This document shows positions 4,422 through 20,346 of a DNA stretch of 64,000 nt, one piece after another. Under the pieces are notes generated by a model that did no database searches, was not told the origin of the DNA, and was given only the letters and a program-made list of their open reading frames with translations. The DNA lies in IMG/VR virus record IMGVR_UViG_3300042691_032761, one strand, 5' to 3'. Within the stretch, counting starts at the first letter, position 1. Every line of letters begins with the position of its first letter. This stretch comes from a virus. The position numbers and the translations under genes are program-made.

Positions 4422-4427
4422 AGTGAA

Positions 4428-4501
4428 AACAGACGGATGGATTCGAACCATCTAATAGAAAGAGAGATAATAGAATACTTGTCCCACCAAGTTGCGTCTG
4501 T
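4428..4501 (-). ncRNA. tRNA-like element with no pairable anticodon arm
   Basis: Acceptor ACAGACG/CGTCTGT, D-arm ACTT-GGTGGGAC-AAGT, T-arm GATGG-TTCGAAT-CCATC; central region pyrimidine-rich and unpaired. Confidence 0.6.
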
Positions 4502-4511
4502 TGCAGAGAAG

Positions 4512-4664: not shown

Positions 4665-4716
4665 AAGTCTCTCCTTCTTTGCTTCTATTCTACACCAAAC
4701 CGGTCAAACTGTCAAG

Positions 4717-4790
4717 TGGGCCTCCCGGGACTCGAACCCGGAACTTACGGTTTAAAAGACCGCTACTCTAACCAGTTGAGTTAGAGGCCC
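4717..4790 (-). tRNA. tRNA-Lys(TTT)
   Basis: Full cloverleaf; anticodon arm GCGGT-CTTTTAA-ACCGT. Confidence 0.95.
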
Positions 4791-4845
4791 ATGTGAGACT
4801 GATTATACAGGAGCCTCAACCTGTTGTCAAGCGTCAGCCTCCGAG

Positions 4846-4921
4846 TAGGGCGAGTAGGAGTCGAACCTACCTATGAACACCTTATAAGAGTGTCGGATGC
4901 AACCGGCTTACCTTCCGCCCC
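4846..4921 (-). tRNA. tRNA-Ile(TAT)
   Basis: Anticodon arm ACACT-CTTATAA-GGTGT; T-arm GTAGG-TTCGACT-CCTAC; non-canonical A8 and weak D-stem. Confidence 0.75.
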
Positions 4922-4975
4922 GTGTTGTGATTATACTATAGTTATCGGCGTTGTCAAGAGTAAACTTTAATCTAA

Positions 4976-5047
4976 CTGGCTCGGTAGGACTCGAACCTAC
5001 AACCGGGCGGTTAACAGCCGCCAGCTCGACCATTGAGCTACGAGCCA
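4976..5047 (-). tRNA. tRNA-Asn(GTT)
   Basis: Cloverleaf; GGCGG-CTGTTAA-CCGCC; G73. Confidence 0.95.
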
Positions 5048-5052
5048 ATAAG

Positions 5053-5123
5053 TTCCGGGGCTAGGATTCGAACCCAGACAAAGAGAACCAAAATCTCTGG
5101 TGCTACCGTTACACTACCCCGGA
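5053..5123 (-). tRNA. tRNA-Gln(TTG)
   Basis: Cloverleaf; AGAGA-TTTTGGT-TCTCT; U1-A72. Confidence 0.92.
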
Positions 5124-5125
5124 GT

Positions 5126-5329
5126 CTACATATCATACTCACGACGCCACTGTTTGTCAACGGCCTTGCGGGTACGCTGTCGCTTGGGGCGATTGTCGAA
5201 CGTAGTATCCGTTTTGTGTTCCCTGTGTCCCTGACGCATTTCCCACGGCATAACCTTCTTGATTTTGATTACGTTGCGGCGTGGCCTCATATCGTCGTTG
5301 TTGTGGAGGGTAATCATACCATGTACCAT
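5126..5329 (-). CDS. basic hypothetical protein
   Basis: Arg/Lys-rich ORF ending 2 nt before tRNA-Gln; overlaps the next ORF in another frame. Confidence 0.5.
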   Translation of the reverse strand: MVHGMITLHNNDDMRPRRNVIKIKKVMPWEMRQGHREHKTDTTFDNRPKRQRTRKAVDKQWRREYDM

Positions 5330-5516
5330 TTTCGTGTTGGTAATAAACCTTATTTGTGTTAGGATCGTAAGCCATCAAACAATACTGAATCGGATAGTTA
5401 GTTTTTACACTATCGGTTTGATTTGTCAAGGGTTTGAGTTGACCGTTTGAATAATCCTTATACCCATTATAAACAAAACCCAATAATGCCAAAACTATTG
5501 GAATCCATTGTACCAT
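5157..5516 (-). CDS. membrane-anchored hypothetical protein
   Basis: N-terminal TM segment MVQWIPIVLALLGFVY; AAGGG RBS; sigma28-type promoter at 5559-5586. Confidence 0.55.
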   Translation of the reverse strand: MVQWIPIVLALLGFVYNGYKDYSNGQLKPLTNQTDSVKTNYPIQYCLMAYDPNTNKVYYQHENGTWYDYPPQQRRYEATPQRNQNQEGYAVGNASGTQGTQNGYYVRQSPQATAYPQGR

Positions 5517-5656
5517 ACCGTTTCCCTTTGTCAAGAGCCGCTTCGTTCCCATACCCTAGTATCGACATTCTGTAGACATCACTTTAAAAAATCTTTGGCA
5601 TGGTATTCGCCGCCCGCGGATTTGCCCTAAGTCCTTTATGGCCAAAGGTTTAGGAA

Positions 5657-5728
5657 TAGCCCCAAGAGGAATCGAACCTCTAACCAGTGCTTAGAAGGCA
5701 CTTGTTATATCCATTTAACTATGGGGCC
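5657..5728 (-). tRNA. tRNA-Arg(TCT)
   Basis: Cloverleaf; AGTGC-CTTCTAA-GCACT. Confidence 0.93.
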
Positions 5729-5729
5729 G

Positions 5730-5910
5730 TCAACGCCGCAAGCCCCGGTGGCGTCCCACCGAGGCTATGCGGTTCGATAGTGTTGTCATCTTACTATCTT
5801 ATATAGTAATAATCTCTAAAGGGTAGACAACTTCGTGGTTACCATCCACTTATCTGGTTGGTTAGACCCCTTTAGGTTGCACCTTTGGCCTTGCAACGAG
5901 CCATCTTACC
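5730..5910 (-). ncRNA. candidate structured RNA leader upstream of tRNA-Arg
   Basis: No ORF; stems GTTGCA/TGCAAC, CTAAAGGG/CCCTTTAG, TTACTAT/ATAGTAA, CCGCA-AGCCTCGGTGG/CCACCGGGGCT-TGCGG. Confidence 0.45.
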
Positions 5911-6192
5911 TATTACGCGGGAGTTACCCCGCCGCACTATGCCTAAAATCTATTTATACTGGCATAGTCCAGTGATATTCAACTTTCGATAAGCGTAGCC
6001 TTGGTTTCGGTTCCAGTAGCATCATTTGCAAGATTCAACTGGTCATTCAACCATCGAACAAACTCGCTCTTATCAAAATCTTGATTATCTGTAATCTCAA
6101 CTGTAAACTTCATAATATTCTCTCTTTCTTATTACGCGGGTCGAAACCCGCCGCACTATGCCTAAAACCTGTTTATACTGGCATAGTCCAGT
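5911..6192. repeat. 63-nt structured direct repeat (5911-5973, 6130-6192)
   Basis: Identical except for a 6-nt hairpin loop and one compensatory pair. Confidence 0.85.
5979..6113 (-). CDS. 44-aa hypothetical protein between the 63-nt repeats
   Basis: MKFTVEITDNQDFDKSEFVRWLNDQLNLANDATGTETKATLIES; purine-rich RBS. Confidence 0.6.
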   Translation of the reverse strand: MKFTVEITDNQDFDKSEFVRWLNDQLNLANDATGTETKATLIES

Positions 6193-6196
6193 TTTG

Positions 6197-6457
6197 TCAA
6201 GCGGTAGCCTCCGCAGTCTCACGCTTAGACTTTTTCGGATTCGCGGAATCACCCGCAGCATCCGCAGTCACGCCGGTCACCCTGGCACGCCAAACCTTGT
6301 AACCCTGCTCCGAAAACGCCTTGACTTCTCCAGCCTTGACGCTCGCGTGAACGTCACCGGGAAGCGTATCGGCCAGACACTCACGAATAGCCTCAGTCAC
6401 AACTTCGCGGTCGAGAGCATCGGCAACAACGTCAACATTGAAAGAAAACTTCTGCAT
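6197..6457 (-). CDS. hypothetical protein
   Basis: Start MQKFSF with GGAG RBS; promoter at 6497-6526. Confidence 0.7.
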   Translation of the reverse strand: MQKFSFNVDVVADALDREVVTEAIRECLADTLPGDVHASVKAGEVKAFSEQGYKVWRARVTGVTADAAGDSANPKKSKRETAEATA

Positions 6458-6695
6458 GATAAAAACTCCAAAAAGTGTAATCGAACCAAGTAAAGTAATG
6501 ATACCCAAACCATCATCACTTGTCAAGTGCTAGACCGAACTTTTTGGCGTTGCGGTTGGTTAGCGTCTTGTCGTGTGATGCTATCAGTATACCACTGTTA
6601 TCGGCACTGTCAACACCGCTTCATGAATCTTTTTTTGATTTGCTGTAAGTTGTTGTGTAGCAAGGGTTTACGTCAAGGCGGCCGGCCGCCCTCGC

Positions 6696-6944
6696 CTATT
6701 CTTCGTCGCCCCTAGATAGTTCCCAACCCGCAGCCCTTACAATACTTTTAGTAGCGATCACATTAGTTTGTGGATCAGCACTAACATAATCCCTATAGCC
6801 ACGTTCATCAACATAGAAATACTCGTCGATAGTATCAAACTTATTAGTCAATAACAATCCACTAATCGCAGCCTCAAGAGCATCTCTTTTACTTAGTGTA
6901 ACTTCTAGTGTGCCAGATTTGATATAAAACTTACCCATGGTCAA
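6696..6944 (-). CDS. hypothetical protein
   Basis: Translationally coupled to the upstream ORF. Confidence 0.65.
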   Translation of the reverse strand: MTMGKFYIKSGTLEVTLSKRDALEAAISGLLLTNKFDTIDEYFYVDERGYRDYVSADPQTNVIATKSIVRAAGWELSRGDEE

Positions 6945-7165
6945 CTCCCAAGGCTAATAAGAATATCGTCGTCAAAATCGCCAAAATCCAAATCCTCGTC
7001 AATATCCAGCAGAGCATTTAGCCAGTAACCATGAATAAGTGTGTCGGCATTAGTACCAAAACTTATATCACTATTAGAAATAGCGTCCATTACATCGTCA
7101 TAGTCTAACTTATTATGATCGCACACATCCTTCAAGGCCAGACATTCGTGAGTAAAACTTTTCAT
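6941..7165 (-). CDS. acidic hypothetical protein
   Basis: Asp-rich; AGGAG RBS. Confidence 0.7.
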   Translation of the reverse strand: MKSFTHECLALKDVCDHNKLDYDDVMDAISNSDISFGTNADTLIHGYWLNALLDIDEDLDFGDFDDDILISLGS

Positions 7166-7173
7166 TACAACTC

Positions 7174-7878
7174 CTAGTGAGAGGGAAACAACACGTTAGC
7201 CAAACCGCGAACACACAAGTTACAGTCTACACTACCCTTAGTCGGAGTGCAAGTCACAACGCCACGACCACGGCGGATTTCGGGACAAGTCACAAACTTC
7301 TCTCCGTCGATGATTACCAGTTTAGGCAGACTCTTACGCCACACTTCCGCAGCGGCTTTACGCTTGGGACGCTTTTTGGCAATCTTTTCGTCACTATCGC
7401 ACCACGCGAACAGTTTGAAACCCGCCAGCGATGCCGTAGCCTTGTCATTAGCATTATGCACACTGGCATAGACTGCCATATACTTATCCATCATGCTAAG
7501 GCGAGGATCATAGATATGGGTATAAAACCACATATCGGGAAGCGTAGCACCATCGGCAAGAATACTCTCGCAAGCCCACACTACATTGTCAACGTAGTCG
7601 GTGTCTAGTTCGCCATTGAGAAACCAATCGCCACGCTCATGCCAACGAATACTCTTACCTTGACGAATAGCGTCCAGAATCATGGAGCGAATACGTCCAC
7701 GCTCAGTAATGACGTTTTGCATACCAGCAGGACGAACATTAGGATACATTTTCTCAGTCTGCTCGGCATAACAACCGTTACCGAGAAACTCACACGTTGA
7801 CGGACAAGTATCGCCAACTGGCCTAGAAACGACCAAACAACCCTTGCCCAACTTGTCATTACCGTTTGCAACTTTCAT
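7174..7878 (-). CDS. GP88-like Cys-rich phage protein (probable Fe-S/metal binding)
   Basis: GNDKLG, TCPxxCxxxxxxCYA, IRWHERGDW, WFYTH and C-terminal CP...CxxC motifs. Confidence 0.65.
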   Translation of the reverse strand: MKVANGNDKLGKGCLVVSRPVGDTCPSTCEFLGNGCYAEQTEKMYPNVRPAGMQNVITERGRIRSMILDAIRQGKSIRWHERGDWFLNGELDTDYVDNVVWACESILADGATLPDMWFYTHIYDPRLSMMDKYMAVYASVHNANDKATASLAGFKLFAWCDSDEKIAKKRPKRKAAAEVWRKSLPKLVIIDGEKFVTCPEIRRGRGVVTCTPTKGSVDCNLCVRGLANVLFPSH

Positions 7879-8011
7879 GATTCTCTCCTAGCGTGTCTCG
7901 TGATTCTACACTAGATTATCGGCACTGTCAAGCGGTTTTCTTTAGAAAAAGTTTGGCACGGTATTCGCGCCCGCCGCCTTGCCCTAAGTTGTTTAGCAGC
8001 AAGGCTTTAGG

Positions 8012-8404
8012 TCAAGAGAGATAACCCTCACAACCCAAATCGACCAGTTCTCGCAGCAGATTCTCAGCCGCTTCGGGAGTTGCAAGAGAGATGCTGTGCT
8101 TTGCTCCAACCTTAGCCGGAACAAACTTATCATACTTCCAACCGCCAACCAGATAGTCGGTCCATTCCTTGGCTTCCCTCAGTCCCCAGCCAGTATGGAT
8201 ACGAATAGCCTTGATGCACTTGATTCTGTTATCAAGGCTCAAGCCGCCGGTAATGGTAACGATCTTGTTCTGGTTCACACCCAACGCCACTTCGATAGCG
8301 TTGATGATGCGATCACGAAGGCTTCTGCCCTCATCACCACCGTAGTTGTCGCACTGGTTAGCGAACAGAACAGCCTCACGCACAGTCAAATCAACCTTGA
8401 TCAT
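8012..8404 (-). CDS. ribosomal protein bL12 (L7/L12) C-terminal-domain-like protein
   Basis: RIKCIKAIRIHTGWGLREAKEW...EAAENLLRELVDLG matches the bL12 CTD pattern KIxVIKxVRxxTGLGLKEAKxxV...EEAExxKxxLEEAG. Confidence 0.75.
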   Translation of the reverse strand: MIKVDLTVREAVLFANQCDNYGGDEGRSLRDRIINAIEVALGVNQNKIVTITGGLSLDNRIKCIKAIRIHTGWGLREAKEWTDYLVGGWKYDKFVPAKVGAKHSISLATPEAAENLLRELVDLGCEGYLS

Positions 8405-8832
8405 TCTCTTTCCTCTAAAATGTAGACTTGTTTACCGTTAGTAATCAGTGTTGCGTATTCAGTCTCATCCCACACAAACTCATTACTATCACTCTCACGA
8501 CGCCAGTATGGATCACGAATGGGATTATAGTATAACTTCTCAAGGTTGTCAACAGGCAAAATCGGATAAAAATCCTTGCGAAGCATAACCTCTTGGCACT
8601 TTACCCACCCACTCACATCATGCACACCACTCTCAAATACTTGCTTGGCTTTATTGGGCCGATTGCGAAGTCTACAACCCCTCATTTCCAACTGATATTC
8701 ATTAGGGTCATAATAATACTCATCGACCTTCTTACTACCCTGCATAACCTTGATTTGCCAGTGCATAAAATGCTTTCCACCACCAAGATGGAATCGCACC
8801 TCACCGTACATTGGTTTCTGTTTCATGCTCAT
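8401..8832 (-). CDS. hypothetical protein
   Basis: 143 aa; VRFHLGGGKHFMHWQIK; start sits directly after the promoter (near-leaderless). Confidence 0.7.
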   Translation of the reverse strand: MSMKQKPMYGEVRFHLGGGKHFMHWQIKVMQGSKKVDEYYYDPNEYQLEMRGCRLRNRPNKAKQVFESGVHDVSGWVKCQEVMLRKDFYPILPVDNLEKLYYNPIRDPYWRRESDSNEFVWDETEYATLITNGKQVYILEERE

Positions 8833-8915
8833 AGTATACCTTATCGACCAATGGTTGTCAAGACCTTTAATCTTTCGCTGACTACAGCCACCCCAGCCAA
8901 ATCCGAAGGATTAGG

Positions 8916-9003
8916 AAAAACAAGCGTTGGGTTGAGCCATACTCGACCGCCATTTAACCGTGGCTTCTTTGATATCATTCTGCCAACGGCCCACCCACTT
9001 GTC
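8916..9003 (-). ncRNA. candidate 88-nt sRNA (three-way junction followed by U-tract)
   Basis: Own promoter at 9010-9049; closing stem ACAAGUG/CGCUUGU, inner hairpins, UUUUU end; no ORF. Confidence 0.55.
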
Positions 9004-9114
9004 TCTCTAAGTATACTCTATTATCGGGCATTCGTCAAGCATCTCTTTAAAAAATCTTTGGCACAAAACGTGCCCGCGGCCTCGCCCTAAGTGCTTTAGG
9101 AGCAAGGCTTTGCG

Positions 9115-9330
9115 TCAGATCACTAGATCGGCAGAGTTCTGTATGGATACTCTCTCTCTGGCCGCTCCGACTTTCTGGATCACCACCCTGTGGTCACCGA
9201 GAAACTCCACCGTACCATCCTCGCCCAGTGCGATCCACGCCTGACCACCGCCGCCATCGGCCGGATGGAAGAAAAACAGCGTCTCGCCCTCCTCCTCAAA
9301 ATCGCTCCGAACCCACTTGCCATTGCTCAT
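9115..9330 (-). CDS. hypothetical protein
   Basis: Last gene of a 4-gene GC-rich cassette; stop abuts the dyad at 9086-9114. Confidence 0.65.
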   Translation of the reverse strand: MSNGKWVRSDFEEEGETLFFFHPADGGGGQAWIALGEDGTVEFLGDHRVVIQKVGAARERVSIQNSADLVI

Positions 9331-9497
9331 CGCTTCTCCTCCACTACTTGATACCGATGCTCATTGATGGTAATCGTACCACCAAACATACTCCAAGTCA
9401 ACTCCTCTTTCATCGCTCGCTTGTGGGCCTTGAGCAGAGCAGGGTAGTCCTGCTGAAACTGCTCGTCGGTCGCATCAGTCCAGATTATTTGCATCAT
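9327..9497 (-). CDS. hypothetical protein
   Basis: Start MMQIIW with AGGAG RBS. Confidence 0.6.
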   Translation of the reverse strand: MMQIIWTDATDEQFQQDYPALLKAHKRAMKEELTWSMFGGTITINEHRYQVVEEKR

Positions 9498-9648
9498 TTG
9501 TGATCTCCTTGAGTTCTGCCAGACGAGCATCCTTCTCGGTCCCGTCATCGTATTCGACCCACGCGGCCCAACGCCCGATCAGTTGCACTACGGTTCCCTC
9601 ATGGCCGATAATGCCGTTCCAACGAATCCGACTTCCAACGGTAATCAT
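9475..9648 (-). CDS. SH3/KOW-like mini-protein
   Basis: MITVGSRIRW...EGTVVQL...WVEYDDG beta-barrel pattern. Confidence 0.55.
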   Translation of the reverse strand: MITVGSRIRWNGIIGHEGTVVQLIGRWAAWVEYDDGTEKDARLAELKEITNDANNLD

Positions 9649-9908
9649 TCGACGTTCACTCCGTATTTGTGACACTGAAACCTTTCGTCCACCTGTTCCG
9701 GCTCGTCGCACGGCTCGATCATTATCGAAATGCCGTTTGGTGCGGTGAACACGGTGCGATAGGGACCATCTTCCCAATCCGGCATATCGTTGTTCACGCC
9801 GATCTGATCCATTACCAGTGCGTCGGCATGGAACGTGGCTAGATCGAAGTTGCGGAACGCCTTGACATGGATCACCCTGTCTCCCGTCACCATCAACACC
9901 AGATGCAT
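9645..9908 (-). CDS. hypothetical protein
   Basis: AGGAG RBS; promoter at 9931-9971. Confidence 0.65.
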   Translation of the reverse strand: MHLVLMVTGDRVIHVKAFRNFDLATFHADALVMDQIGVNNDMPDWEDGPYRTVFTAPNGISIMIEPCDEPEQVDERFQCHKYGVNVE

Positions 9909-10033
9909 AACCCTTCTCCTTGTGATGCTAAGTCTACCATCTATTATCGGCCTGTCAAGAGGCTTTCTTTAAAAAAGTTTTGGCACGGCATTCGCGCCCG
10001 CGGCCTCGCTGTAAGTTATTTACTAGCAAGGCT

Positions 10034-10294
10034 TTATGGCGACCACGGATAATCCTTTGGATATGGTTCGCTAGGCGGTTGCGGCTTGTCCTGTCCCTCG
10101 TCGGGCATCCACCACGGAGCATCCATATAATCTACATTTCCCCAAGATTCCCCACAATAGATATTATGAATACAAAACTTATCCTCATAGTTTATCTTAT
10201 AAACCCCACGCCACACACCAATAGCCTCACCATAATAGATGATCTTTTGGCCGTTGATTGGGCGACGAGGCCCGTGAAAACTAATCCACTCCAT
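10034..10294 (-). CDS. hypothetical protein (DUF551-like)
   Basis: MEWIS...PxxGQ N-terminus and WMP C-terminal pattern. Confidence 0.55.
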   Translation of the reverse strand: MEWISFHGPRRPINGQKIIYYGEAIGVWRGVYKINYEDKFCIHNIYCGESWGNVDYMDAPWWMPDEGQDKPQPPSEPYPKDYPWSP

Positions 10295-10455
10295 TATACC
10301 CTCATTGCTATCTTTTCGTATTCACTAATCAAATCTGCTACCGTTATACCATGCTCTTCTGCTAAAGTCAATGCCTCTTTCTTAGCAGGACTCATAATCA
10401 ACATGGCATTCTTTAGAACCCTGAGAATCTTAAATATTGCTTCTTCTTTAGTCAT
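10294..10455 (-). CDS. hypothetical protein
   Basis: Start MTKEEA with GGAGG RBS. Confidence 0.6.
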   Translation of the reverse strand: MTKEEAIFKILRVLKNAMLIMSPAKKEALTLAEEHGITVADLISEYEKIAMRV

Positions 10456-10715
10456 TCTTCCTCCGGTGGAAACAACCTGTTCCAAGCCTCATCATCGTTA
10501 CCCGTCATCAGAATCTCACGCTGCTCCGCAGTCAGATGCGGAAAGCATTCTTGAATCAAACCACCATTAGCCCAACGATTAGCCTCGTCAAGATACGTCA
10601 CAATAGAAAAACTATTACCGCTATTTGTAGTGCCACTAAAAGTCACGGTGCCACCATCATGGCTAACCCAACGCTCAACACGATCACTCAAACCAAATCT
10701 CTGAAAGCCAAGCAT
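10452..10715 (-). CDS. hypothetical phage protein
   Basis: LIQECFPHLTAEQREILMTG motif; AGGAG RBS. Confidence 0.7.
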   Translation of the reverse strand: MLGFQRFGLSDRVERWVSHDGGTVTFSGTTNSGNSFSIVTYLDEANRWANGGLIQECFPHLTAEQREILMTGNDDEAWNRLFPPEEE

Positions 10716-10774
10716 AACTTTTCTCCTTGTGCTACCATTCTACTCTAGTATTATCGTCAAGTCAATAGGAAAAA

Positions 10775-11168
10775 ACCAGCGAATCTTTTACGCCCCGATT
10801 CTATTGTCCTGGTGGCTACCCTGTTACGGACCATAGGAAACCGCCCACGGAAATCCTTCCTAGGCATAGTTCATGACTCATGCTGTCTGGCTCTTGGGAA
10901 CGGTTACTGGTTGTATTGTAATGAGTTTAGGCTGCTCTCGCCGTTTCCGTGCTGCGCTTTCCTAGTTGGCTCTTTTATACGTTATTTATCCAACTAGCCT
11001 ACTCATTGTATTACTCGTGGTCTGGATGCAATCCCACATAGATTAGCACTACTATACAGCGTATAAGCCCGCTGTCAACCCACAGCCCGATGTGACGGTA
11101 GGTTTATCGTAATGGCTTATCCTAATCTAGTCCCTCAGCATGGACCCACGGATGTTTGTTTTGTCTTA
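10775..11168 (-). ncRNA. candidate large (about 390 nt) structured ncRNA
   Basis: Own promoter at 11176-11203, no credible ORF, many nested complementary stems, hairpin plus U-tract at the end. Confidence 0.6.
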
Positions 11169-11306
11169 CTCTTTCATTCTACACTCTATTATCGGCCTGT
11201 CAAGAGCATGATCGTGAGAAAATAAAAGATTCCGCCCGCCCGCGGCCTCGCCCTAAGTCCTTTGTTTCCAAAGGGTTAGGGTTAGAGGCTTTAGCGAGAA
11301 GACGGC

Positions 11307-11714
11307 TTAGAACATCATTGCCGCAACACCGCTCTTGAACAGAGCCCCACCCAAGAGGGGGCGACGGCAGTTCACAACGCGCTCTGCGTAGAAGTTGCGA
11401 ACAGTACCATCGGGACTCTCACCAGTAATAAGGTGATGAGTACGCTTGAACTTACTATCATTTCGTCGGTAGTTGCTAGTAGCATTCAGCCGACTAATCT
11501 GATTATCATTCAGCGTACAAACATCACGCACCTTGACCATATAACGCTCAGGATCACCCTTGTGAGGCTGGAGATACTCAAAGTTATACACTTCTCCAAC
11601 CCTAGCCGAACTCAGACTAGCGTTCACGCCAGAGTAAACATGAAACAACACAAAAGCAACAACAACACCAACCACACCAACGGCAAACAGACCATAAGAA
11701 AAAACATCAGTCAT
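11307..11714 (-). CDS. membrane-anchored WYL-like protein
   Basis: N-terminal TM helix; VYNFEY...ERY...GTVRNFYAERV resembles the WYL RxF...RI pattern. Confidence 0.55.
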   Translation of the reverse strand: MTDVFSYGLFAVGVVGVVVAFVLFHVYSGVNASLSSARVGEVYNFEYLQPHKGDPERYMVKVRDVCTLNDNQISRLNATSNYRRNDSKFKRTHHLITGESPDGTVRNFYAERVVNCRRPLLGGALFKSGVAAMMF

Positions 11715-11774
11715 TTAGAACCCTTTCGTTGAAATGAAACCTTTTCTAGAGTATACCACACCAAACCACGCTTG

Positions 11775-12062
11775 TCAATCTTCTTTCCACTGAATCGTGG
11801 GAGTTGACGGACCATAATATCGATACAGATATTCAAAGTCCATATTTCCATACCGCTCATAGTTCAGGATCAAATCACTCACCCTGCACTGGTACAGCGT
11901 AGGAGGAGTCATCTTGCTCCACTTGTAGGTACGATAACCATCCTTTGTGATGCAAGTAATCCAATCCTTACCAAACTTCAAAATAGTACCCCAAACATTC
12001 TTACCATTATAGGTAAAGTTTAGGGTGTTGCTAACCCAGTAGGGCCAATAGGGATTGCTCAT
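11775..12062 (-). CDS. WYL/Sm-like small protein
   Basis: LNFTYNGK...G...TKDGYRTYKWSKM; similar to 18214-18480. Confidence 0.5.
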   Translation of the reverse strand: MSNPYWPYWVSNTLNFTYNGKNVWGTILKFGKDWITCITKDGYRTYKWSKMTPPTLYQCRVSDLILNYERYGNMDFEYLYRYYGPSTPTIQWKED

Positions 12063-12202
12063 CTTTTCACTCTCTTTCTTCTACTTCTATTATCGACATT
12101 CTACCACGGGAACTTTAGCCCGTCAAGCAGAAAATAAAAAATTTTGGCGGCCGGCCAGCTTGCCCTAAGTCATTGTGTTTAAACAACTTAGAGCGAGCCG
12201 TT

Positions 12203-12409
12203 TTAGTTTGTGGACGGAGTTGACTTTTCCACACACTTCTCCACAATCTTTCCCATAACCATCTTATGAAAAAGTTGTTCTGCAATCATAATAGCATCTG
12301 CCCTCATTTCGGCAGGATACTCCCTCATTTCGGTCAAACGCACCACGGTGGCCGTAAAGTTCATAATGTCAATCATCATCTGCTCATGCTCGGTCACAAC
12401 GGCTTTCAT
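12203..12409 (-). CDS. hypothetical protein
   Basis: Start MKAVVT with AGGAG RBS; own promoter. Confidence 0.65.
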   Translation of the reverse strand: MKAVVTEHEQMMIDIMNFTATVVRLTEMREYPAEMRADAIMIAEQLFHKMVMGKIVEKCVEKSTPSTN

Positions 12410-12523
12410 CTCTTTTTCTCCTAGTAAGACCATTCTACTCTGCTAAAGACCGCTTGTCAACACCAAAAACTTTCGCTGACTACGCCCACGCCGCCCAAAT
12501 CCGTAGGATTAGGCAGGACAAAA

Positions 12524-12596
12524 TGACCCCACGGGGATTCGAACCCCGGTAAACGGAACGAAAATCCGTTGTCCTAGGCCACTAGACGATGGGGCC
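12524..12596 (-). tRNA. tRNA-Glu(TTC)
   Basis: Cloverleaf; D-arm GTC-TAGTGGCCTAG-GAC; ACGGA-TTTTCGT-TCCGT. Confidence 0.92.
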
Positions 12597-12598
12597 AA

Positions 12599-12757
12599 TC
12601 AACCAAAAATCGTTTCTTCAATCCTTAGATCGCTACCATACTTGTCCTTTGCTTTTTGCCAAGCATCATAGCGACTAAAAGCCACCACATAACCAACGAA
12701 TCGGCCATGCTTGAATACTCTCCACGACGTTCCGGCAAGGCATTGAGCAGTGGTCAT
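12599..12757 (-). CDS. hypothetical protein
   Basis: Start MTTAQC with AGGAG RBS. Confidence 0.6.
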   Translation of the reverse strand: MTTAQCLAGTSWRVFKHGRFVGYVVAFSRYDAWQKAKDKYGSDLRIEETIFG

Positions 12758-13060
12758 GAGCAATCTCCTTTGCCGGATTATACACATTATCGACGCATTG
12801 TCAACACTAACTTTAGAAAAAATTTGGCACAGATTTCGCGGGCGCGCCGCCTTAGCGTAACCCTTTATGTCTCAAGAGTTTACGATCCATGCCGCAACGC
12901 AACCCGCCACGAATGATACAACCAAAACAATCTTATCCATTTACTAATCCTTTTTTATTGGAAAAACAAGATCAGAAACAATGTAACAACCAACAATGCC
13001 AGCAATAAATCCCACACCAATCTGTACCCAGTTTATATCGACCATCCGTGGCCCCTTTCT

Positions 13061-13387
13061 TTAAGGAATAACAAGATATTCATTTGTAACCAGCATATTA
13101 TCTTCAAACTCTGGCTCGTTTCCAGCATTAACATACCATGTATAGTTTTTCTGGTAAACTTTAACAGGGCTATACTGATTAATACGCTTTTTAGTGGTAC
13201 TGGTACGATATCCCCCACTATTCAACTTATAAAGCCCGTTAGGGTAGATCACCACCACCTTAGTACCGTGGAGTTCAATCGCCACACTGCCATCGTGTTC
13301 AATGTAAGCGTAGGTATTATTTCCAACCTTACGCTGGCTGCGATTACGCTTGCCCAAAACCATCTTTGTCGCTTCGGCGTGAGTCAT
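13061..13387 (-). CDS. conserved hypothetical phage early protein
   Basis: LHGTKVV...LNSGGYRTSTTKKRINQ motif; own promoter. Confidence 0.7.
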   Translation of the reverse strand: MTHAEATKMVLGKRNRSQRKVGNNTYAYIEHDGSVAIELHGTKVVVIYPNGLYKLNSGGYRTSTTKKRINQYSPVKVYQKNYTWYVNAGNEPEFEDNMLVTNEYLVIP

Positions 13388-13438
13388 TTTCTTTTCCTTT
13401 GGGATGATGCTCTAAGTCTACAGGATATCATCGGCCTG

Positions 13439-13675
13439 TCAAGCGTTTTTCTTGAAAAAATGTTGGATCATTCCACAGATATCGAAAACGATTCCCCAGA
13501 TCGTGAACGCGATGGTTGAAGTACCTACTAGCATCATCCACCAACCCAGATACGTTTCGCCCTCACCCGTCAACACGTTAGGCTCACCATATCCCAAAGC
13601 CCACATGCACACCACGATCACGCACAGGGCAGCACTATAAACCAAACCAACGCCGGTCATGAACAGAGTATTCAT
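13439..13675 (-). CDS. two-TM membrane protein
   Basis: Two hydrophobic helices. Confidence 0.65.
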   Translation of the reverse strand: MNTLFMTGVGLVYSAALCVIVVCMWALGYGEPNVLTGEGETYLGWWMMLVGTSTIAFTIWGIVFDICGMIQHFFKKNA

Positions 13676-13811
13676 TTCTTTTCCCTTTTGTGTTACTACT
13701 TATATCGGTATTCTACAGGCCAAAACTTTACCTGTCAACAACAAAATAAAAGATTCCGCGGCCCCGCCCGCTCGCCCTAAGTGCTTATGCACAAAGGGTT
13801 TGCGGCAAGCG

Positions 13812-14042
13812 TCACTCAAAATCCACGAAGATTACTTGAGCATATCCTCGTGGCCTGATGGTGATACTATCCCCATAATCATAGGTGTCAGCCCTTACTC
13901 CCGTCATATTGGCGAGAGCCTTAGCCCTCCTCACAATAGTACGCTGAGAAACATCATCAGTCACATTGAACTGGTGAAAGTTAACCCACCCATAGTTAGC
14001 CTCACCACCGAAAGTATCAGTAACTGTAACAGCACATTTCAT
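13812..14042 (-). CDS. hypothetical protein
   Basis: VTDTFGGEANYGWV motif; GGAGG RBS. Confidence 0.7.
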   Translation of the reverse strand: MKCAVTVTDTFGGEANYGWVNFHQFNVTDDVSQRTIVRRAKALANMTGVRADTYDYGDSITIRPRGYAQVIFVDFE

Positions 14043-14284
14043 CAGAAATCCTCCCCGTAGTAACCGTAGTCCTCGTCGGTCCCCCAACCGGCGGATTCCA
14101 TCGCGGAATCGTGGTCGCCGTCCATGCTATCGTCGTAATCGTCGTAAAAATCGTTATCGTCCATTTCCGGCTCGTCGCCGTAGAAATCGTCGCTGTAATC
14201 GTAGTGGTAATCCGTGAAGTTGCTGACCATACCATCCTCCTCGTGAGAGTTATCGGGATCGAAACAGGGATCGGGGTGACTCAT
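14042..14284 (-). CDS. extremely acidic protein
   Basis: Asp/Glu/Tyr-rich; ends SAMESAGWGTDEDYGYY. Confidence 0.7.
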   Translation of the reverse strand: MSHPDPCFDPDNSHEEDGMVSNFTDYHYDYSDDFYGDEPEMDDNDFYDDYDDSMDGDHDSAMESAGWGTDEDYGYYGEDF

Positions 14285-14297
14285 GACTTTCTCCTTT

Positions 14298-14504
14298 TCA
14301 GTAAACATACCACGGAACACCGTTCTCGTCAACCATCATTTCCGGCTCGGGGTACATCTCGTCGGCCAGACCCGTGACTTCGGCCCAATCCATCGGGTCG
14401 CAAGTCGGCTCGTCAATCGGCTCAACCATCGGCTCCAGCGTACCCTGCTCCGCAAGGTCGGCCAGGATCGCATTCACATCGTCGAAGGCATTGAACATGG
14501 TCAT
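14298..14504 (-). CDS. acidic protein
   Basis: No Lys or Arg; many D/E; GGAG RBS. Confidence 0.7.
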   Translation of the reverse strand: MTMFNAFDDVNAILADLAEQGTLEPMVEPIDEPTCDPMDWAEVTGLADEMYPEPEMMVDENGVPWYVY

Positions 14505-14665
14505 TTCTCCGGGGTGATGCTCTGATTCTACAGAGTATTATCGGCGTGTCAACAAACAAAAATCCAGAAAATAAAAGATTTTGTTATTCGCTCTAAGGTG
14601 TTGATACCAAAGGGTTTACGCCGCAGCGGCGGGCGGCTGTCAACCCCCACACAGAGGGGATATTG

Positions 14666-14998
14666 TCAACCCCTCCAGCCGAAGGGGGAGACTTCCTCAC
14701 CAGCGGCCAAAATGGCGGCGTACTGCTCGGCCAGTGCGGCCTTGCGTTCCGGCGAACCCGGCTTGCCCACCTTCACGATCATGGTATCTTCACCCCCCAC
14801 CATGCGGGGATCGGCCTTCTCAACCTTCACACCCCCCTTGCGACGGAGAGCCTTGCGATTGAACTTGAGAACCTTTTCGCTGCGGATCGGACCATACTCG
14901 CCGTTTGCGAGTCGGGGCTGGTGAGGGATTGCGATGCCGAGAAAGCACATACGAGCCTGACGCTTGGCATCTTCGATGATCTTGAACTTGGTAGCCAT
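14666..14998 (-). CDS. basic hypothetical protein
   Basis: Start MATKFK with AGGA RBS. Confidence 0.7.
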   Translation of the reverse strand: MATKFKIIEDAKRQARMCFLGIAIPHQPRLANGEYGPIRSEKVLKFNRKALRRKGGVKVEKADPRMVGGEDTMIVKVGKPGSPERKAALAEQYAAILAAGEEVSPFGWRG

Positions 14999-15446
14999 TT
15001 TCTTTTTCCTTTTGGTGATGATGGTAGTATATGAAACTTTTTCCGCCGCCGCAACCCCCCTTATTCGGGGATCGGCCAGATTTGCACATCGGCCCCACAG
15101 TGTTCGCCACACTGAGGGCAAACGCCGTGTTCGGCGTGAATCGGGGTCATTTCAGCCCCACAGCAATCGGACACAATCAGGATATCATTCATCATCTTTC
15201 ACTCTCACTTATCGACATTATACCCTGCATTCTTTAGATAGCAAGAAAAAAAAATGTATTTTTTGTGGCACACGATTTGCTAATGCAAAAACCGTGCCAA
15301 AAATCGGGCGCGGCGATTAGCCCTAAGTCCTTGCCACATAACGAGTTACGCTGGCTGTCGGTATCGTTATCCGGCTAGAATAGCCGGTACAACCCCCGCA
15401 GATAGGGGGCTACCCCCCTTTCGAGGGATAGCTCCCACACCCCCTT

Positions 15447-15635
15447 TCAGGTGGCATGAATGAACACACGTTCACTTACAGTTTTGTTAGTAACAGTTAC
15501 AATCCAGTTTTTACCGCTACCATCCTCTCGCATGATAGCATTGATGAGTCCAACGTGAGCGTTACCCTTCGGGTCGATCACGCTACCATACTTGCCACTC
15601 CGCATCGCGGCCAGAATCTTATCAAGGCTATTCAT
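15447..15635 (-). CDS. hypothetical protein
   Basis: GLINAIMREDGSGKNWIV; GAGGAG RBS. Confidence 0.65.
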   Translation of the reverse strand: MNSLDKILAAMRSGKYGSVIDPKGNAHVGLINAIMREDGSGKNWIVTVTNKTVSERVFIHAT

Positions 15636-15817
15636 TTCAGAGATTCTCCTCGTAAAAAGAAATACCAGCGTTCACACACTGGCTAAAAGCGTAGGTGATC
15701 CAAGCCGCAACGCTCAGATAGGCCACCAGAGCCATCCAATCATTGAAAGTCAGATACATGATTTCCCTTTCGTGTGAGTGTATTCTACCGAAACTTTTTC
15801 GCGGCGTCAACCCCCTC

Positions 15818-15976
15818 TCAGGCAGGGGTCAGTTCGCTATCGCAGAAAGTCGATATCGTCTGATCCTGCACCCTAACGACCCACACGTTTCCCTCGTCGT
15901 AGTACCACTTCACGATCACCCCCTCTTTCGGAGTGGTGTAACTGTTCACGATAACCTTGTCGCCAACTTCGAACAC
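15818..15976 (-). CDS. SH3/KOW-like mini-protein
   Basis: GTG start; FEVGDKVIV...EGVIVK...VVRV. Confidence 0.6.
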   Translation of the reverse strand: MFEVGDKVIVNSYTTPKEGVIVKWYYDEGNVWVVRVQDQTISTFCDSELTPA

Positions 15977-16112
15977 GCTAGCCTCTCTTTCTCGTGAGTG
16001 TATTCTACAGTATAGTATCGGCTTGTCAACAAAAAAAATCCACAAAAAATAAAATCGTCACAAGTCCTTATGGCACAAGGGTTTACGTCGAGGCGGCGCC
16101 CCGGCCACCCCC

Positions 16113-16358
16113 CTATTCGGGGTACGATTCCCCTCGCTCCACCATAGCACAGTAGTCGTTCAGTTTATCATAGAACGAATCGGCATAGTAAAGCAACACG
16201 CGGTCGGGGTGATTGTTGATGGTAACATAGTAACCACCATTGTAAGGCTGATCCATCTTGGCATGGCCACTATGCGTGATAGAGTATTCGCAATCATCGC
16301 CCATCATTTCGTGGATAGCGTGAACGATTTCGTTGACGGTAACGTGGCGAAGCATCAT
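16113..16358 (-). CDS. hypothetical protein
   Basis: Follows directly after the 16360-16593 gene. Confidence 0.55.
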   Translation of the reverse strand: MMLRHVTVNEIVHAIHEMMGDDCEYSITHSGHAKMDQPYNGGYYVTINNHPDRVLLYYADSFYDKLNDYCAMVERGESYPE

Positions 16359-16359
16359 G

Positions 16360-16593
16360 TTAGTTGTCCCATCCGATATTTTGGTCAATGAAAGGCCCAT
16401 ACACCATACCCTCATCCACCCAACTCTCATTCGGCGTGGGGGTGAGAGTCACGATATCCTTACCCGTACTGTCAAACCGAATCCGATACATAGCCTGTCG
16501 GTAATCGTTGCCGGGGATGATATCCACCACAACTCCCCGTGCGATGGTATCGTTTCGACCACCAGCACACACTCTATCACCAATCTGAATCAT
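16360..16593 (-). CDS. SH3/KOW-like mini-protein
   Basis: IQIGDRV...RGVVVDI...YRIRFD. Confidence 0.6.
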   Translation of the reverse strand: MIQIGDRVCAGGRNDTIARGVVVDIIPGNDYRQAMYRIRFDSTGKDIVTLTPTPNESWVDEGMVYGPFIDQNIGWDN

Positions 16594-16653
16594 GTTTTCC
16601 CTTTCGTGTTGAGTGGATCGTACCAGACTTTTTTCGCCCCGTCAACCCCACTA

Positions 16654-16830
16654 TTAGGTGGGTTCCGAAAGCCATTTGTCCAGAGCATCTACGCTAGTGC
16701 AGTCAGCACGGGGGATTTCGATTTCCTCGTCGCCAACTCTGACTAGATAGGTATCGGTATCCATCTGGACGATCACGCCCGTGGCGTACATATGAGCAAT
16801 CCGCACGAAAACCTTGTCACCGATTCGCAT
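16654..16830 (-). CDS. SH3/KOW-like mini-protein
   Basis: MRIGDKVFV...TGVIVQ...YLVRV. Confidence 0.6.
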   Translation of the reverse strand: MRIGDKVFVRIAHMYATGVIVQMDTDTYLVRVGDEEIEIPRADCTSVDALDKWLSEPT

Positions 16831-16876
16831 GGTCTTTTTCCTCTTGTGACTATTGTACCAGACTTTTTTGGCCCCG

Positions 16877-17080
16877 TCAAGCCCCCACAACGGGGGAGCG
16901 ATTCCGACGGTTGTATTCCATCATCGCCTTTTCATCCTGAATCATCCGGACTACGCTATCCCGGAACGCGGTCACGAGCACATCGTAACCCATCTTCACA
17001 TCGTACAGGTGGTAGAATCCACGAGCATCCTTCGTCAGCACGAAACCCACCTTCACGGCTTCCATCTTCAGATTTTTCAT
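16877..17080 (-). CDS. hypothetical protein
   Basis: Own sigma70/sigma28 promoter. Confidence 0.65.
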   Translation of the reverse strand: MKNLKMEAVKVGFVLTKDARGFYHLYDVKMGYDVLVTAFRDSVVRMIQDEKAMMEYNRRNRSPVVGA

Positions 17081-17215
17081 TTTCGTTTTTCCCTTACTTT
17101 CTATATCGGTATTCTACAGTGTGAACTTTAGTTGTCAAACAAAAAAAATCGGATTTGTTTACCCCCATAGCGAGGGGGTCGCGCTGCCCGGCCGGATTGG
17201 CTGGGACACCCCCCA

Positions 17216-17674
17216 TTAGCGGGACATTTTCAAGATACGCTCCACGGTCCCGGCCTTGACCATCTTTTCCAGATGTTGCCGAATGCGGAAACCGTCAACA
17301 CCTTCCGCTCGCATCGTGGCCGCGATATCGGCCAGACTACGGATTTCGGCCTTGCGAGCATCGTCGAGCATCCGCACAAAAACTTCCCGGCGATGCATGA
17401 CTTCGATAGGGTTGCCGAAACCGTCGGCCATGGACAGCGGCGGAAGGATCGACAACTCGCCGACACTGGTATTTTGCTTCCGATTGTTGCACACTCCACA
17501 AAGAGCCTGCAGATTGTCCAGACTGTCGGAACCACCCTTGCTTTCCGGCACAATGTGATCACACTGTAGAGCATCGCGGTCGCCGATACCACAAGCACGG
17601 CAACGGCCGTTGTCGCGGGCGATAACTTGTTCGCGGATCGTCGCGGGAATCGGCTTTTTTCGTCGCATGATCAT
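17216..17674 (-). CDS. HNH endonuclease
   Basis: RDNGRCRAC...DHIVPESKGGSDSLDNLQALCGVCNNRK. Confidence 0.9.
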   Translation of the reverse strand: MIMRRKKPIPATIREQVIARDNGRCRACGIGDRDALQCDHIVPESKGGSDSLDNLQALCGVCNNRKQNTSVGELSILPPLSMADGFGNPIEVMHRREVFVRMLDDARKAEIRSLADIAATMRAEGVDGFRIRQHLEKMVKAGTVERILKMSR

Positions 17675-17911
17675 TTTCCCTGCTAGGTTATATCGGCATT
17701 TTACCCTACGATACTTGAATGTCAAAGAAAAAAAATCTGAAAAAATAATCGCTAGAAATATCTTATTTGGCACAAGGTTTGCATATGCAAATGCCATGCC
17801 AAAATATATTATTCCGCGTAAAAGATTACATTAGGTAGTACATCCCCCATAGGTGGGGGTTCGGCTGCCCGGGCGGATTGGCTGGTACAACCTATCCCCC
17901 CTAGTGGGGGA

Positions 17912-18136
17912 TCATGAAACCCCCATCCAACTCGCGTTTTCCACGCAATAATCGTAGAACATATCGTTCAAAACACGTTCGGCCGTGTTGAGTGTGATTC
18001 GCTTTTCTGTCATGATAGCGTCACACTTTGCCACGAAGCGGTTCAGACGGGGATAGTAGATGATCGACACTTCGTGAGAGTTATCTTGCCAGATGCGAGC
18101 CTTGATATTGTTCAGTTGGTTGAGCGTCTTTTCCAT
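17912..18136 (-). CDS. hypothetical protein
   Basis: 74-aa ORF with purine-rich RBS. Confidence 0.65.
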   Translation of the reverse strand: MEKTLNQLNNIKARIWQDNSHEVSIIYYPRLNRFVAKCDAIMTEKRITLNTAERVLNDMFYDYCVENASWMGVS

Positions 18137-18213
18137 TTTCTTTCTCTTTTCTTTGTGTTAGACTAGATTGTAAAGACCACCGAACCCTGCCGTCTACCCC
18201 CCCCGATGGGGGA

Positions 18214-18480
18214 TCACCGGATCCCGTAGCGTGTGACCCTGCGATCCTTCACCGCGTCGTAGCCGTCATCCGTGCTGCGGAAGGTGGGGACGAGCGGCCG
18301 AAAGATGCAATCGACAGACTTTTCCCAATAGATAGACTTGACACCATCGGCAGTCTCGACCACGAGGAGATTGCCTTTTTCCGTCTTACGCTGCGACAGC
18401 ACTTTGCCAGCGTAGGGCTTGCCGTTATAGGTGCAACGGATCGAACCACCGACGACATCGTAACCAGCACACTTGATCAT
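18214..18480 (-). CDS. WYL/Sm-like small protein
   Basis: IRCTYNGK...GKV...ETADGVKSIYWEK; similar to 11775-12062. Confidence 0.55.
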   Translation of the reverse strand: MIKCAGYDVVGGSIRCTYNGKPYAGKVLSQRKTEKGNLLVVETADGVKSIYWEKSVDCIFRPLVPTFRSTDDGYDAVKDRRVTRYGIR

Positions 18481-19006
18481 GTCAAAACCTTTCGTAGTAG
18501 TGATGCCCCGATTATACAGTATGGTATCGTCAACGCAAGAAAAAAAAATGAGAAAATCTTTTTCTTTCGATATTGTAAGGATTGGATTTTTGGCATAGGT
18601 TTTGCTGCCAGATTGGATTAGGTAATCCATAGGATACTCTCCCTCGTTAGGGGGGAATCGTATCATTGTGGGATTGTATCCCCCTATTGGGGGGTATACG
18701 CTTGTTCATCCTCCTATTGGGGGGTAGGATCCCTCTGGCGTGGTAGTGTACACTTGTGATCCCTCTGTCGGGGGGTATCTCCCTCTCCCTCTATTGGGGG
18801 GAGTCTCCCCTCCCCTCTCGCGGGGGGTATGTAGCGTTCCCCCAACTAGGGGGGTTTTTCTGTTTCCCCCACGAATAGGGGGGTTTTCGGCCGGGGCGGC
18901 CGGTGGTCCAAAAAAAATAAGCACCCCCATATAAAAATTGGCCAGTTTATAAAAAAAGAGGCGAGTGTTGCCACCCGCCCCTTTTGAACCAAGGGTCGAA
19001 ACTATT

Positions 19007-19291
19007 TTAGTAGCGATATCGAACCCAAGGATTATAAACGTAAACAGGATAAGTAGCCACGGGTTGAGAATAAACCACAACCGGTTGTGGCTGATATACT
19101 ACCACAGGCACATAAACCACTTGAGGCCGCACTTCCTGCACAACCACACACTGAGGTTGAACAACAATAACTTGTGGTTTTTGACAAGATGTCCATTCAC
19201 AAGCAAAACAACTATTTGCACAGTATGCTACCATGAAAATAGCGCAAAATAATGAAGCCTTAACCATTGATATCACCAGAAGTTTGAGCAA
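19007..19291 (-). CDS. small secreted Val/Pro/Gln/Tyr-rich protein
   Basis: Signal peptide ending CFA; low-complexity VVYQPQP. Confidence 0.65.
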   Translation of the reverse strand: MLKLLVISMVKASLFCAIFMVAYCANSCFACEWTSCQKPQVIVVQPQCVVVQEVRPQVVYVPVVVYQPQPVVVYSQPVATYPVYVYNPWVRYRY

Positions 19292-19484
19292 CCTTAATCT
19301 TTGGTGGTCTGCCTCGTTTCTTCTTAATATCTAACTTGCGCCTTTGACGGCGTATCATGCTTCGAGTAATATTTTGACCCGTCATCTCACTTAGTTTTAT
19401 GGCCAAAACCTCATCATTCATTAGATCCTGATTGTTTCTAATAAATTCTAGTTCACTATCAAGCCATTTCTTATAATTCGCCAT
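19260..19484 (-). CDS. Myb/HTH-like DNA-binding protein with AT-hook
   Basis: KKWLDSELEFIRNN...LAIKL...RRKLDI followed by KRGRPPK; GGAGG RBS. Confidence 0.65.
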   Translation of the reverse strand: MANYKKWLDSELEFIRNNQDLMNDEVLAIKLSEMTGQNITRSMIRRQRRKLDIKKKRGRPPKIKVAQTSGDING

Positions 19485-19689
19485 TTTATAACCTCCATAA
19501 ATTGCACAAAATGTGTAACTGTTTATTATAGTATTGTTGACCAGAATAGCAAGAGGGCAATTATGATAAACGACCAAAATCCACAATTTGTTGATAGCGT
19601 ACTAGAAACCAAAGCAGAAGCCTCTTTAAACGAACAAATACAAAAAGATTTAGAATTACCAGAGGGTAAATCTATAGCGGAACTATTAG

Positions 19690-20346
19690 ATGACCAAGAA
19701 AAATCAGAAAAATAATATTTATGAACAATATGGCGTTACTGAACAAGATTTTTTGAACGTATTAGACAACATTAGTAAACGATTAGCATATAAATTTAAA
19801 TTTGGATATCATGAATATGAGGACATGAAGCAACAAGCCGCTATATTTGCTATAGAGGGTTTGCAGAAGTATGATCAAAAACGCCCACTAGAAAACTTTC
19901 TTTGGACCCACGTTCGTAACAGATTATTTAATTACAAACGAAATAATTATCAGCGCCCAGATAAACCGTGCTTAACCTGTCCACTATTTGACAAGTCCAG
20001 AGCAAGCCAGTGTTCAGAGTATGATAATAAAAATGATTGTGAATTATATTCAAATTGGAAAAACAGAAACGAAAATAAAAAAAATATTATGAGGCCCCAA
20101 AGCATTCATAAAGATGCTGACAACGAAGATACCCCAATAGCAGACAAACACGACTCATCAACTTTTCTGCAAAACCAGGAAATAATAAACTTTCTAGATT
20201 CACATATAGTTAGCACAGAATATAGAGAAATTTATTTAAAATTGAAACATGGAGTAAAAGTAAATAAGCCCCTATTAGATAAACTAAAAATCCATATAGA
20301 AACATTATTGAAAGATTACCAATGTCAAAAAAACGAGGACAATTAA
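19690..20346 (+). CDS. phage sigma70-family sigma factor (probable late sigma)
   Basis: Region-2-like EDMKQQAAIFAIEGLQKYD...FLWTHVRNRLFNYKR; Cys4 insertion. Confidence 0.7.
   Translation: MTKKNQKNNIYEQYGVTEQDFLNVLDNISKRLAYKFKFGYHEYEDMKQQAAIFAIEGLQKYDQKRPLENFLWTHVRNRLFNYKRNNYQRPDKPCLTCPLFDKSRASQCSEYDNKNDCELYSNWKNRNENKKNIMRPQSIHKDADNEDTPIADKHDSSTFLQNQEIINFLDSHIVSTEYREIYLKLKHGVKVNKPLLDKLKIHIETLLKDYQCQKNEDN

Follow-up and report, generated by a model that had tools for sequence, protein, structure and literature searches.

Sigma-54 (RpoN) is the sole bacterial sigma factor that parks RNA polymerase silently until an ATPase fires it. Its -24/-12 promoters in bacteria (e.g. glnAp2, TGGCAC-N5-TTGCW) have a close sequence counterpart in a set of short repeated boxes in the early region of an uncultured freshwater phage, IMG/VR virus record IMGVR_UViG_3300042691_032761, which we describe here from a 64,000-nucleotide stretch (the window) of that 75-kb record, itself estimated to be ∼53% complete. 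The boxes share with the bacterial promoters the bipartite motif, the GG-N10-GC register, variants of the -12 element and the flanking bases, and in related phages upstream repeats, an A/T tract and a box likewise precede genes. Unlike the bacterial promoters, they are phage-borne, mostly face away from genes, are in several cases GC-clamped and form interdigitated pairs, and no activator or enhancer was seen in the window. Phage use of sigma-54 is documented in very few cases; the one we found is Pseudomonas phage YuA, reported to be sigma-54-dependent (Ceyssens 2008, as cited in PMC10914365). The YuA record (NC_010116) annotates three -24/-12 promoters with measured activity, which drive structural and lysis genes. 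As strong-consensus counterparts of the boxes these can be set aside, being weak matches only, and a loose scan of YuA for TGGYAY-N7-GC gave 3 matches compared to 5.6 expected. On the reading we favor, the phages studied here would resemble YuA as tailed phages that use host sigma-54, but the YuA sites belong to the late region and have the sense orientation, and they form neither pairs nor repeated cassettes.

The promoter/stem-loop (PeSL) cassettes of T4-type phages reportedly consist of a sigma-70 early promoter and a stem-loop only. Like these, the window contains a repeated promoter-plus-hairpin module that flanks small, variable early genes and stands before unrelated open reading frames (ORFs), as expected of a PeSL-like mobile element; unlike them, its cassettes have in addition a sigma-54-type box, a GC-rich core and a sigma-28-like pair. 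The stoperators of mycobacteriophage L5 are many asymmetric sites, set in one orientation in short intergenic spaces, which bind the phage repressor. Here, too, many asymmetric sites occupy short intergenic spaces, but their orientation is mixed and their motif is a host sigma-factor box. A further comparison is with the non-productive and intragenic sigma-54 sites of E. coli and Salmonella, where polymerase is held inactive and represses when the site overlaps another promoter (PMC4591121, PMC3844500). Those sites, like ours, are high-scoring and found in either orientation; they are scattered inside genes, whereas the boxes described here are intergenic, hold a fixed place in the cassette, are phased to sigma-70 promoters and are often paired. 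We read the boxes as docking sites for host sigma-54 RNA polymerase within repeated early cassettes, a reading to which, judging from sequence, we assign a probability of roughly 55%.

Sigma-54-type boxes in the early region

The late genes occupy the plus strand from 19.7 kb; their products include a terminase, a portal, a sigma-like protein and a tape measure protein of 3593 residues. Between ∼2.7 and 19.6 kb, the minus strand holds seven tRNA genes and small early genes, served by about 25 sigma-70-type promoters that are close to consensus and have an extended -10 (a consensus scan gave 80 promoter-like sites, compared to 25.6 expected). The intergenic spaces are made of repeated parts, namely a conserved hairpin, a GC-rich core, an A/T tract and a promoter, and the full cassette order is hairpin, GC core, box, phased A/T tract and sigma-70 promoter.

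The pattern TGGCAY-N5-TYGC has nine exact matches in the window, compared to 0.31 ± 0.54 in shuffled sequence, and none of 100 shuffles reached nine. Scanning the whole record recovered the same nine sites and nothing further, with no match for the reversed control. A tenth box, at 9059-9073, is a variant (TGGCAC-N5-GTGC) that retains GG-N10-GC. Counting it as the eighth module, the ten boxes fall into eight modules between 5.6 and 18.6 kb, which bears out the number given in a first-pass annotation of this DNA. Every box is intergenic and sits between the hairpin and GC core that end one cassette and the A/T tract before the next sigma-70 promoter:

5596-5610, plus strand: box 1, exact match, TCGC at -12, then a GC-rich core; tRNA-Arg upstream on the gene strand
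7954-7968, plus strand: box 2, exact match, TCGC at -12, 22 nt from the -35 of the GP88-like gene's promoter; GC core next
9059-9073, plus strand: variant box, GTGC at -12, GG-N10-GC kept; a small hairpin is also possible
9981-9995, plus strand: box 3, exact match, TCGC at -12, 22 nt from the -35 at 9958; GC core next
12825-12839, plus strand: box 4, exact match, TCGC at -12, 20 nt from the -35 at 12804; GC core next
15266-15299, both strands: dyad 1, exact matches on the plus strand at 15266-15280 and on the minus strand at 15285-15299, with a 4-nt center
17768-17801, both strands: dyad 2, exact matches on the plus strand at 17768-17782 and on the minus strand at 17787-17801, with a 4-nt center
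18591-18605, plus strand: box 9, exact match, TTGC at -12, between an array of C5/G5 hairpins and the last early cassette

Because the early genes and their promoters are on the minus strand, 8 of the 10 boxes face away from them, and the two minus-strand dyad halves face with the genes. The minus half of dyad 1 is directed at the 15244-15217 promoter and the 14666-15121 ORF; dyad 2 lies upstream of the promoter at 17725-17698 and an HNH endonuclease gene.

Conservation of the motif in related loci

Using the GP88-like gene at 7174-7878, we recovered 80 related loci from lake viromes. In these, a spacer of N5 gave 193 matches, compared to 2–11 for each of the other spacings from N2 to N9. The 4-mer located 11 nt past TGGCA was TTGC in 143 occurrences, with the next commonest at 60. 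A logo of 152 unique boxes revealed preferences beyond the bases fixed by the pattern, with T-T ahead of TGG, R following CAY, T ahead of TTGC and T following GC, and these agree with the sigma-54 consensus TGGCAC-N5-7-TTGCT, compiled over 720 validated promoters (PMC12316311). The boxes thus have the bipartite TGGCAC/TTGC form of sigma-54 promoters, with GG and GC exactly 10 nt apart. Strict spacing and consensus-like flanks lend good sequence support to the sigma-54 identity proposed in the first-pass annotation, and the GG-N10-GC register, on which that proposal had been staked, proved to be conserved in the related loci. Taken across the family, these patterns indicate that the motif is maintained by selection.

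The same logo bears on another possibility, namely that the mRNA strand forms a small intrinsic terminator hairpin in which a box is the 3′ half and the A/T tract acts as the U-run. A terminator scan did call a minus-strand hairpin plus T-run at 7971-7955, 9998-9982 and 9074-9060. However, shuffled sequence folds just as stably as these three (z from –1.24 to +0.89), and at none of the boxes is a stable GC-rich hairpin followed directly by a U-run. Moreover, no complement is conserved past the box in the family logo, the TTGC half takes no part in pairing, the box unit works inverted too, and the dyad spacers lack covariation. We consider this explanation very improbable.

In complete relatives, the boxes are found clustered in the early region, within a few kilobases. 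The box upstream of the orthologous GP88-like gene, together with its A/T flank, can take either orientation or be missing. At this site in the related loci L033, L041, L042, L044, L061 and L064, 15-nt palindromes (CTGCCA-AAA-TGGCAG) flank the GC core; these are another TGGCA-containing element and stand in place of the usual cassette hairpins.

Sense-strand cassettes and helical phasing

Eight of the 10 window boxes lack the placement of a conventional promoter, upstream of and co-oriented with a transcribed gene; 17 unique cassettes in close relatives have it. In these cassettes, the order is A/T tract, box, A/T-rich melting region, strong Shine-Dalgarno site and start codon. Each of the 17 lies on the gene strand before a small ORF, the ORFs being unrelated, and usable sigma-70 hexamers were found in none of them. 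The -12 element varies (TTGCT, GTGCA, ATGCA, CTGCA, TCGCA), while GG-N10-GC is invariant. The sense cassettes that we inspected have one to four 12-mer repeats ∼70–110 nt upstream of the box. These repeats (GCAAAATGCTAC or the palindromic TTGCA-N3-TGCAA) are always on the gene strand (L001:4621-4652, L019:5253-5328, L036:4593-4668 and others) and look like enhancer sites. As judged from the sequence, both the architecture and the variation of the sense cassettes are those expected of real sigma-54 promoters with an enhancer. Such cassettes are present in the close relatives and absent from the window.

GC content immediately after the box is 27% for sense boxes, compared to 48% for antisense boxes, and the dyads are A/T-rich like the sense boxes. 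Distances between antisense boxes and the -35 of the neighboring sigma-70 promoter fall into discrete classes of 20–23, 30–33, 42–47, 54–58 and 64–69 nt, with a Rayleigh Z of 34.6 at a period of 11 nt, and sense boxes likewise peak at 11 nt. One caveat here is that the Rayleigh statistic is inflated because the copies are related by descent; nonetheless, the gap classes are made of different A/T tracts. Two readings fit this phasing: a requirement that whatever protein is bound faces the sigma-70 polymerase, or an intervening curved A/T tract whose length is a whole number of helical turns. The elements neighboring the boxes are as follows:

7903-7953, minus strand: a representative partner element, made up of the A/T tract that it shares with box 2 and a sigma-70-type promoter whose -35 lies at 7931-7926 and whose -10 ends at 7903
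5534-5507, 9038-9010, 9958-9931, 12804-12777, 15244-15217 and 17725-17698: equivalent promoters
7969-8018, minus strand: example of the GC-rich core plus conserved hairpin closing the upstream cassette; the same family occurs at nine sites in the window

Geometry and spread of the dyads

The first-pass annotation placed two identical 34-bp dyads at 15266-15299 and 17768-17801. Both the coordinates and the pattern are right, but the sequences differ: the two dyads follow a common pattern and are symmetric at the box positions only. In a set of 13 unique convergent dyads, 15 of 65 spacer positions are complementary, which is the level expected by chance, and complementarity does not extend along whole arms as it would in a palindromic hairpin or cruciform. 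Confinement of the symmetry to the box positions points to recognition by a protein rather than to a hairpin. We placed the start sites by standard numbering, with +1 at 12 nt past the C of GC, so that they are inferred and not measured. With a 4-nt center, the rightward half would start at dyad position 27 and the leftward half at position 8, 19 bp apart. Such start sites would fire outward, making the dyad a bidirectional rather than a colliding element, and the label head-to-head, which the dyads had been given, is therefore misleading.

Viral contigs contain the 4-nt-center dyad in at least 118 stretches, which range from 30 to 68% GC and come from many habitats. The reversed control gave no match, a 2-nt center gave one and an 8-nt center gave 26. 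This spread is readily explained only by a host factor of invariant specificity. Unrelated viral contigs also contain dense arrays, in which 8–11 boxes alternate in orientation every 20–25 bp (L106:328-523, L146:418-596, L200:231-676, L204:5667-6037). One carrier is cultured, namely Pseudomonas phage vB_PaeM_C2-10_Ab02 (Pakpunavirus Ab02), which infects P. aeruginosa and has 11 boxes, compared to one control match. Four of its boxes lie in each copy of the 1165-bp terminal repeat, and a dyad and one single box share a 620-nt intergenic gap. P. aeruginosa has RpoN. Pseudoalteromonas phage H101 was considered as another carrier, having 18 nt in common with dyad 2, yet it contains a single box only.

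Clustering of the flanking ORFs identified a small-terminase-like gene 200–600 nt downstream of the dyad in 32 loci. Terminase genes consistently read away from the dyad, both in the small-subunit-like clusters (32/32 and 5/5) and in the large-subunit clusters (19/19 and 8/8), and the large terminases after the dyad belong to two unrelated families. Often, the dyad lies between the terminase genes and a divergent GP88-like gene. Compared with those of cultured phages, terminases of the dyad group reached at most 49% identity, over half of the protein. This neighborhood raises the question of whether dyads and arrays are packaging, genome-end or replication sites, whether pac-/cos-like or origin-like. 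The distance of 200–600 nt to small-terminase-like genes in other phages, the presence of four Ab02 boxes within the terminal repeat, and the termination of several contigs within 100 nt of a dyad would all fit. Against this, the window boxes are 4–17 kb from the terminase gene and distributed across eight early cassettes, the same motif stands beside at least three unrelated terminase families, and contig ends at repeats can be assembly breaks. A role of this kind is improbable.

We tentatively propose that the dyad and the arrays are a widespread phage device for capturing host sigma-54 polymerase; this is possible, though we hold it with less than even confidence. The device would be either a compact bidirectional promoter, with starts ∼19 bp apart, or a high-affinity sponge, and would be placed in early regions, in terminal repeats and before packaging genes across many unrelated phages. 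In Ab02 (L212:3300-3420; LN610572.1, ∼80800-80920), ∼110 nt of GC-rich sequence, in which no gene is annotated, lie between a strong single box (TTGGCAC-N5-TTGCA) and the dyad just after. A small RNA may be made there, from a sigma-54-type promoter preceding the dyad.

Possible docking of host sigma-54 polymerase

If the boxes dock host sigma-54 polymerase, each dyad would be two interdigitated sigma-54 promoters, one sending a transcript into the downstream cassette and the other producing an antisense transcript. Single counter-oriented boxes would mostly hold polymerase as a silent closed complex; four of them run into the GC-rich core and lack enhancer-like repeats. A closed complex on the same helical face, sharing a common A/T tract, would compete with or tune the neighboring sigma-70 promoter; repression by sigma-54 polymerase where it overlaps another promoter has been described in E. 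coli (PMC4591121). Single boxes would also soak up host sigma-54. The activator would be supplied by the host or be of a novel type. Near-identity to the sigma-54 consensus, tolerance at -12 and spread over unrelated phages together favor a reader that is constant across bacteria.

Several observations weigh against docking of this kind. Counter-orientation, as described in the first-pass annotation, holds in the window but family-wide is merely a 62% bias (89 antisense versus 54 sense boxes), compared to sigma-70 promoters that are 95% sense (878 versus 45). The GC-rich block into which four window boxes directly run should resist melting, and no enhancer-like repeats were found in the window. 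Tandem pairs 26 bp apart, and the arrays at 20–25 bp, are too dense for several holoenzymes to bind together. In E. coli, sigma-54 polymerase bound inside genes is no roadblock (PMC4591121), which speaks against the roadblock or insulator role that the first-pass annotation had proposed alongside decoys and antisense promoters. The search for a bacterial enhancer-binding protein or RpoN-box protein that the first-pass annotation had suggested came up empty: the activator domain PF00158 had no match in the window's record or in five complete relatives (G001-G005), the sigma-54 DNA-binding domain PF04552 had none in G001-G005, and the core-binding domain PF04963 had none in G001, G004, G005 and two partial relatives. 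Since neither a sigma-54 nor an activator domain was found in the phage genomes searched, both must, on the docking reading, be the host's. As to that host, metagenome-assembled genome bins with related terminases disagree (Rickettsiales, Alphaproteobacteria, Flavobacteriales, SAR202, Silvanigrellaceae).

Some of these points suit a different reader, a small sequence-specific DNA-binding protein, either phage-encoded or an unrecognized host factor, whose site resembles or mimics a sigma-54 box. By binding at cassette boundaries, it would shut off or tune the early promoters in the manner of the L5 stoperators, and the dyads would be full dimer or tetramer sites; a dimeric repressor, which the first-pass annotation had offered as its alternative, may be what binds. 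The occurrence of boxes in both orientations is consistent with such operators, as is the conservation of pair geometries (13 convergent pairs with a 4–6-nt gap, 5 of 9 divergent pairs with an 8-nt gap and 3 of 9 tandem pairs with an 11-nt gap). Arrays at 20–25 bp in other phages fit a small protein better than a polymerase, and the lack of an activator in the searched genomes and the GC-rich downstream flank at several boxes also point this way. Furthermore, arithmetic on the gap classes puts the box centers at about –65, –76 and –87 from the sigma-70 start, like the positions of class I activators. On the other hand, a phage protein with one 15-bp specificity across contigs of 30–68% GC with unrelated terminases would be unusual, and the non-imposed positions and the -12 variation obey sigma-54 rules. 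Nor did a common candidate gene emerge, GP88 (PF17338) being the sole family that links the groups. On balance, operators for a small protein are less likely than docking to account for the boxes, but they are a serious alternative.

The GP88 family (PF17338/DUF7227) is the only gene family linking the window's phages with other dyad-bearing phages, and is also present in phages of Mycobacterium, Streptomyces and Synechococcus. Its members, among them those at window 7174-7878 (minus strand), L175:5811-6593 and L148:5023-5664, have invariant Cys25, Cys36, Arg78 and Asp84. We considered the GP88-like protein as a reader of the boxes and dropped it: the structural model (pLDDT 49.5) was too poor for a fold search, and there were no PDB or NCBIfam matches.

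Returning to the docking of sigma-54 polymerase, the motif class and one sigma-54-dependent phage are already known. In the literature, we found neither sigma-54 boxes nor dyads described for the early regions of phages, and likewise no account of the cassette placement, the counter-orientation, the phasing or the pan-viral interdigitated dyad. From the sequence patterns, phages probably dock host sigma-54 RNA polymerase at paired boxes in a manner not yet described. If so, sigma-54 docking is part of the regulatory cassettes of many phages, among them a large group that is abundant in fresh water. It could be a phage switch tied to host physiology (nitrogen status, envelope stress, the flagellar program) or, alternatively, a means of draining a host stress sigma factor, and the dyad would be the first sigma-54 element that is both symmetric and bidirectional. 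The element is directly testable, since one is present in a cultured phage of P. aeruginosa.

Host clues and other repeated elements

The early and late parts of the window are separated by a sharp break in base composition: positions 1-20000 are 43–52% GC with negative GC skew, and positions 20000-64000 are ∼29–41% GC, mostly 32–37%. Several of the seven phage tRNAs serve A/T-ending codons (AAA, AUA, AGA, CAA, GAA). This break and the tRNA set suggest that the host may be more GC-rich than the phage late genes. A GDP-mannose dehydratase-like gene was tried as a host clue, and its homologues were uninformative. The cultured phages with terminases closest to that of the window are Bacillus phages, at 25% identity, and megablast of the early region against the cultured-phage collection gave no match.

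A 55-nt repeat family adjoins tRNA genes (tRNA-Ser, tRNA-Glu) at window positions 1249-1303, 2321-2375, 8869-8923 and 12467-12521. No tRNA was called beside the copy at 8869, and an undetected small RNA may sit at ∼8925-9000.

The sigma-28-like pair, TAAA-N16/17-GCCGATA, recurs on the minus strand between window positions 3800 and 17750 (e.g. 7952-7903, 13738-13700, 17139-17100). The family contains 138 unique copies, never with the canonical N15 spacing. The pair shifts by ∼21 nt relative to the sigma-70 hexamers with its internal spacing kept, CCGATA lying either in the spacer or just past the -10; being constant internally while shifting in this way, it behaves as a bipartite element of its own.

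Tandem short hairpins of the form C5-N4-5-G5 occupy window positions 18640-18882 and 15414-15454. On the side of the last early cassette that faces the genome interior, five of them are consecutive, at intervals of ∼26–29 nt.

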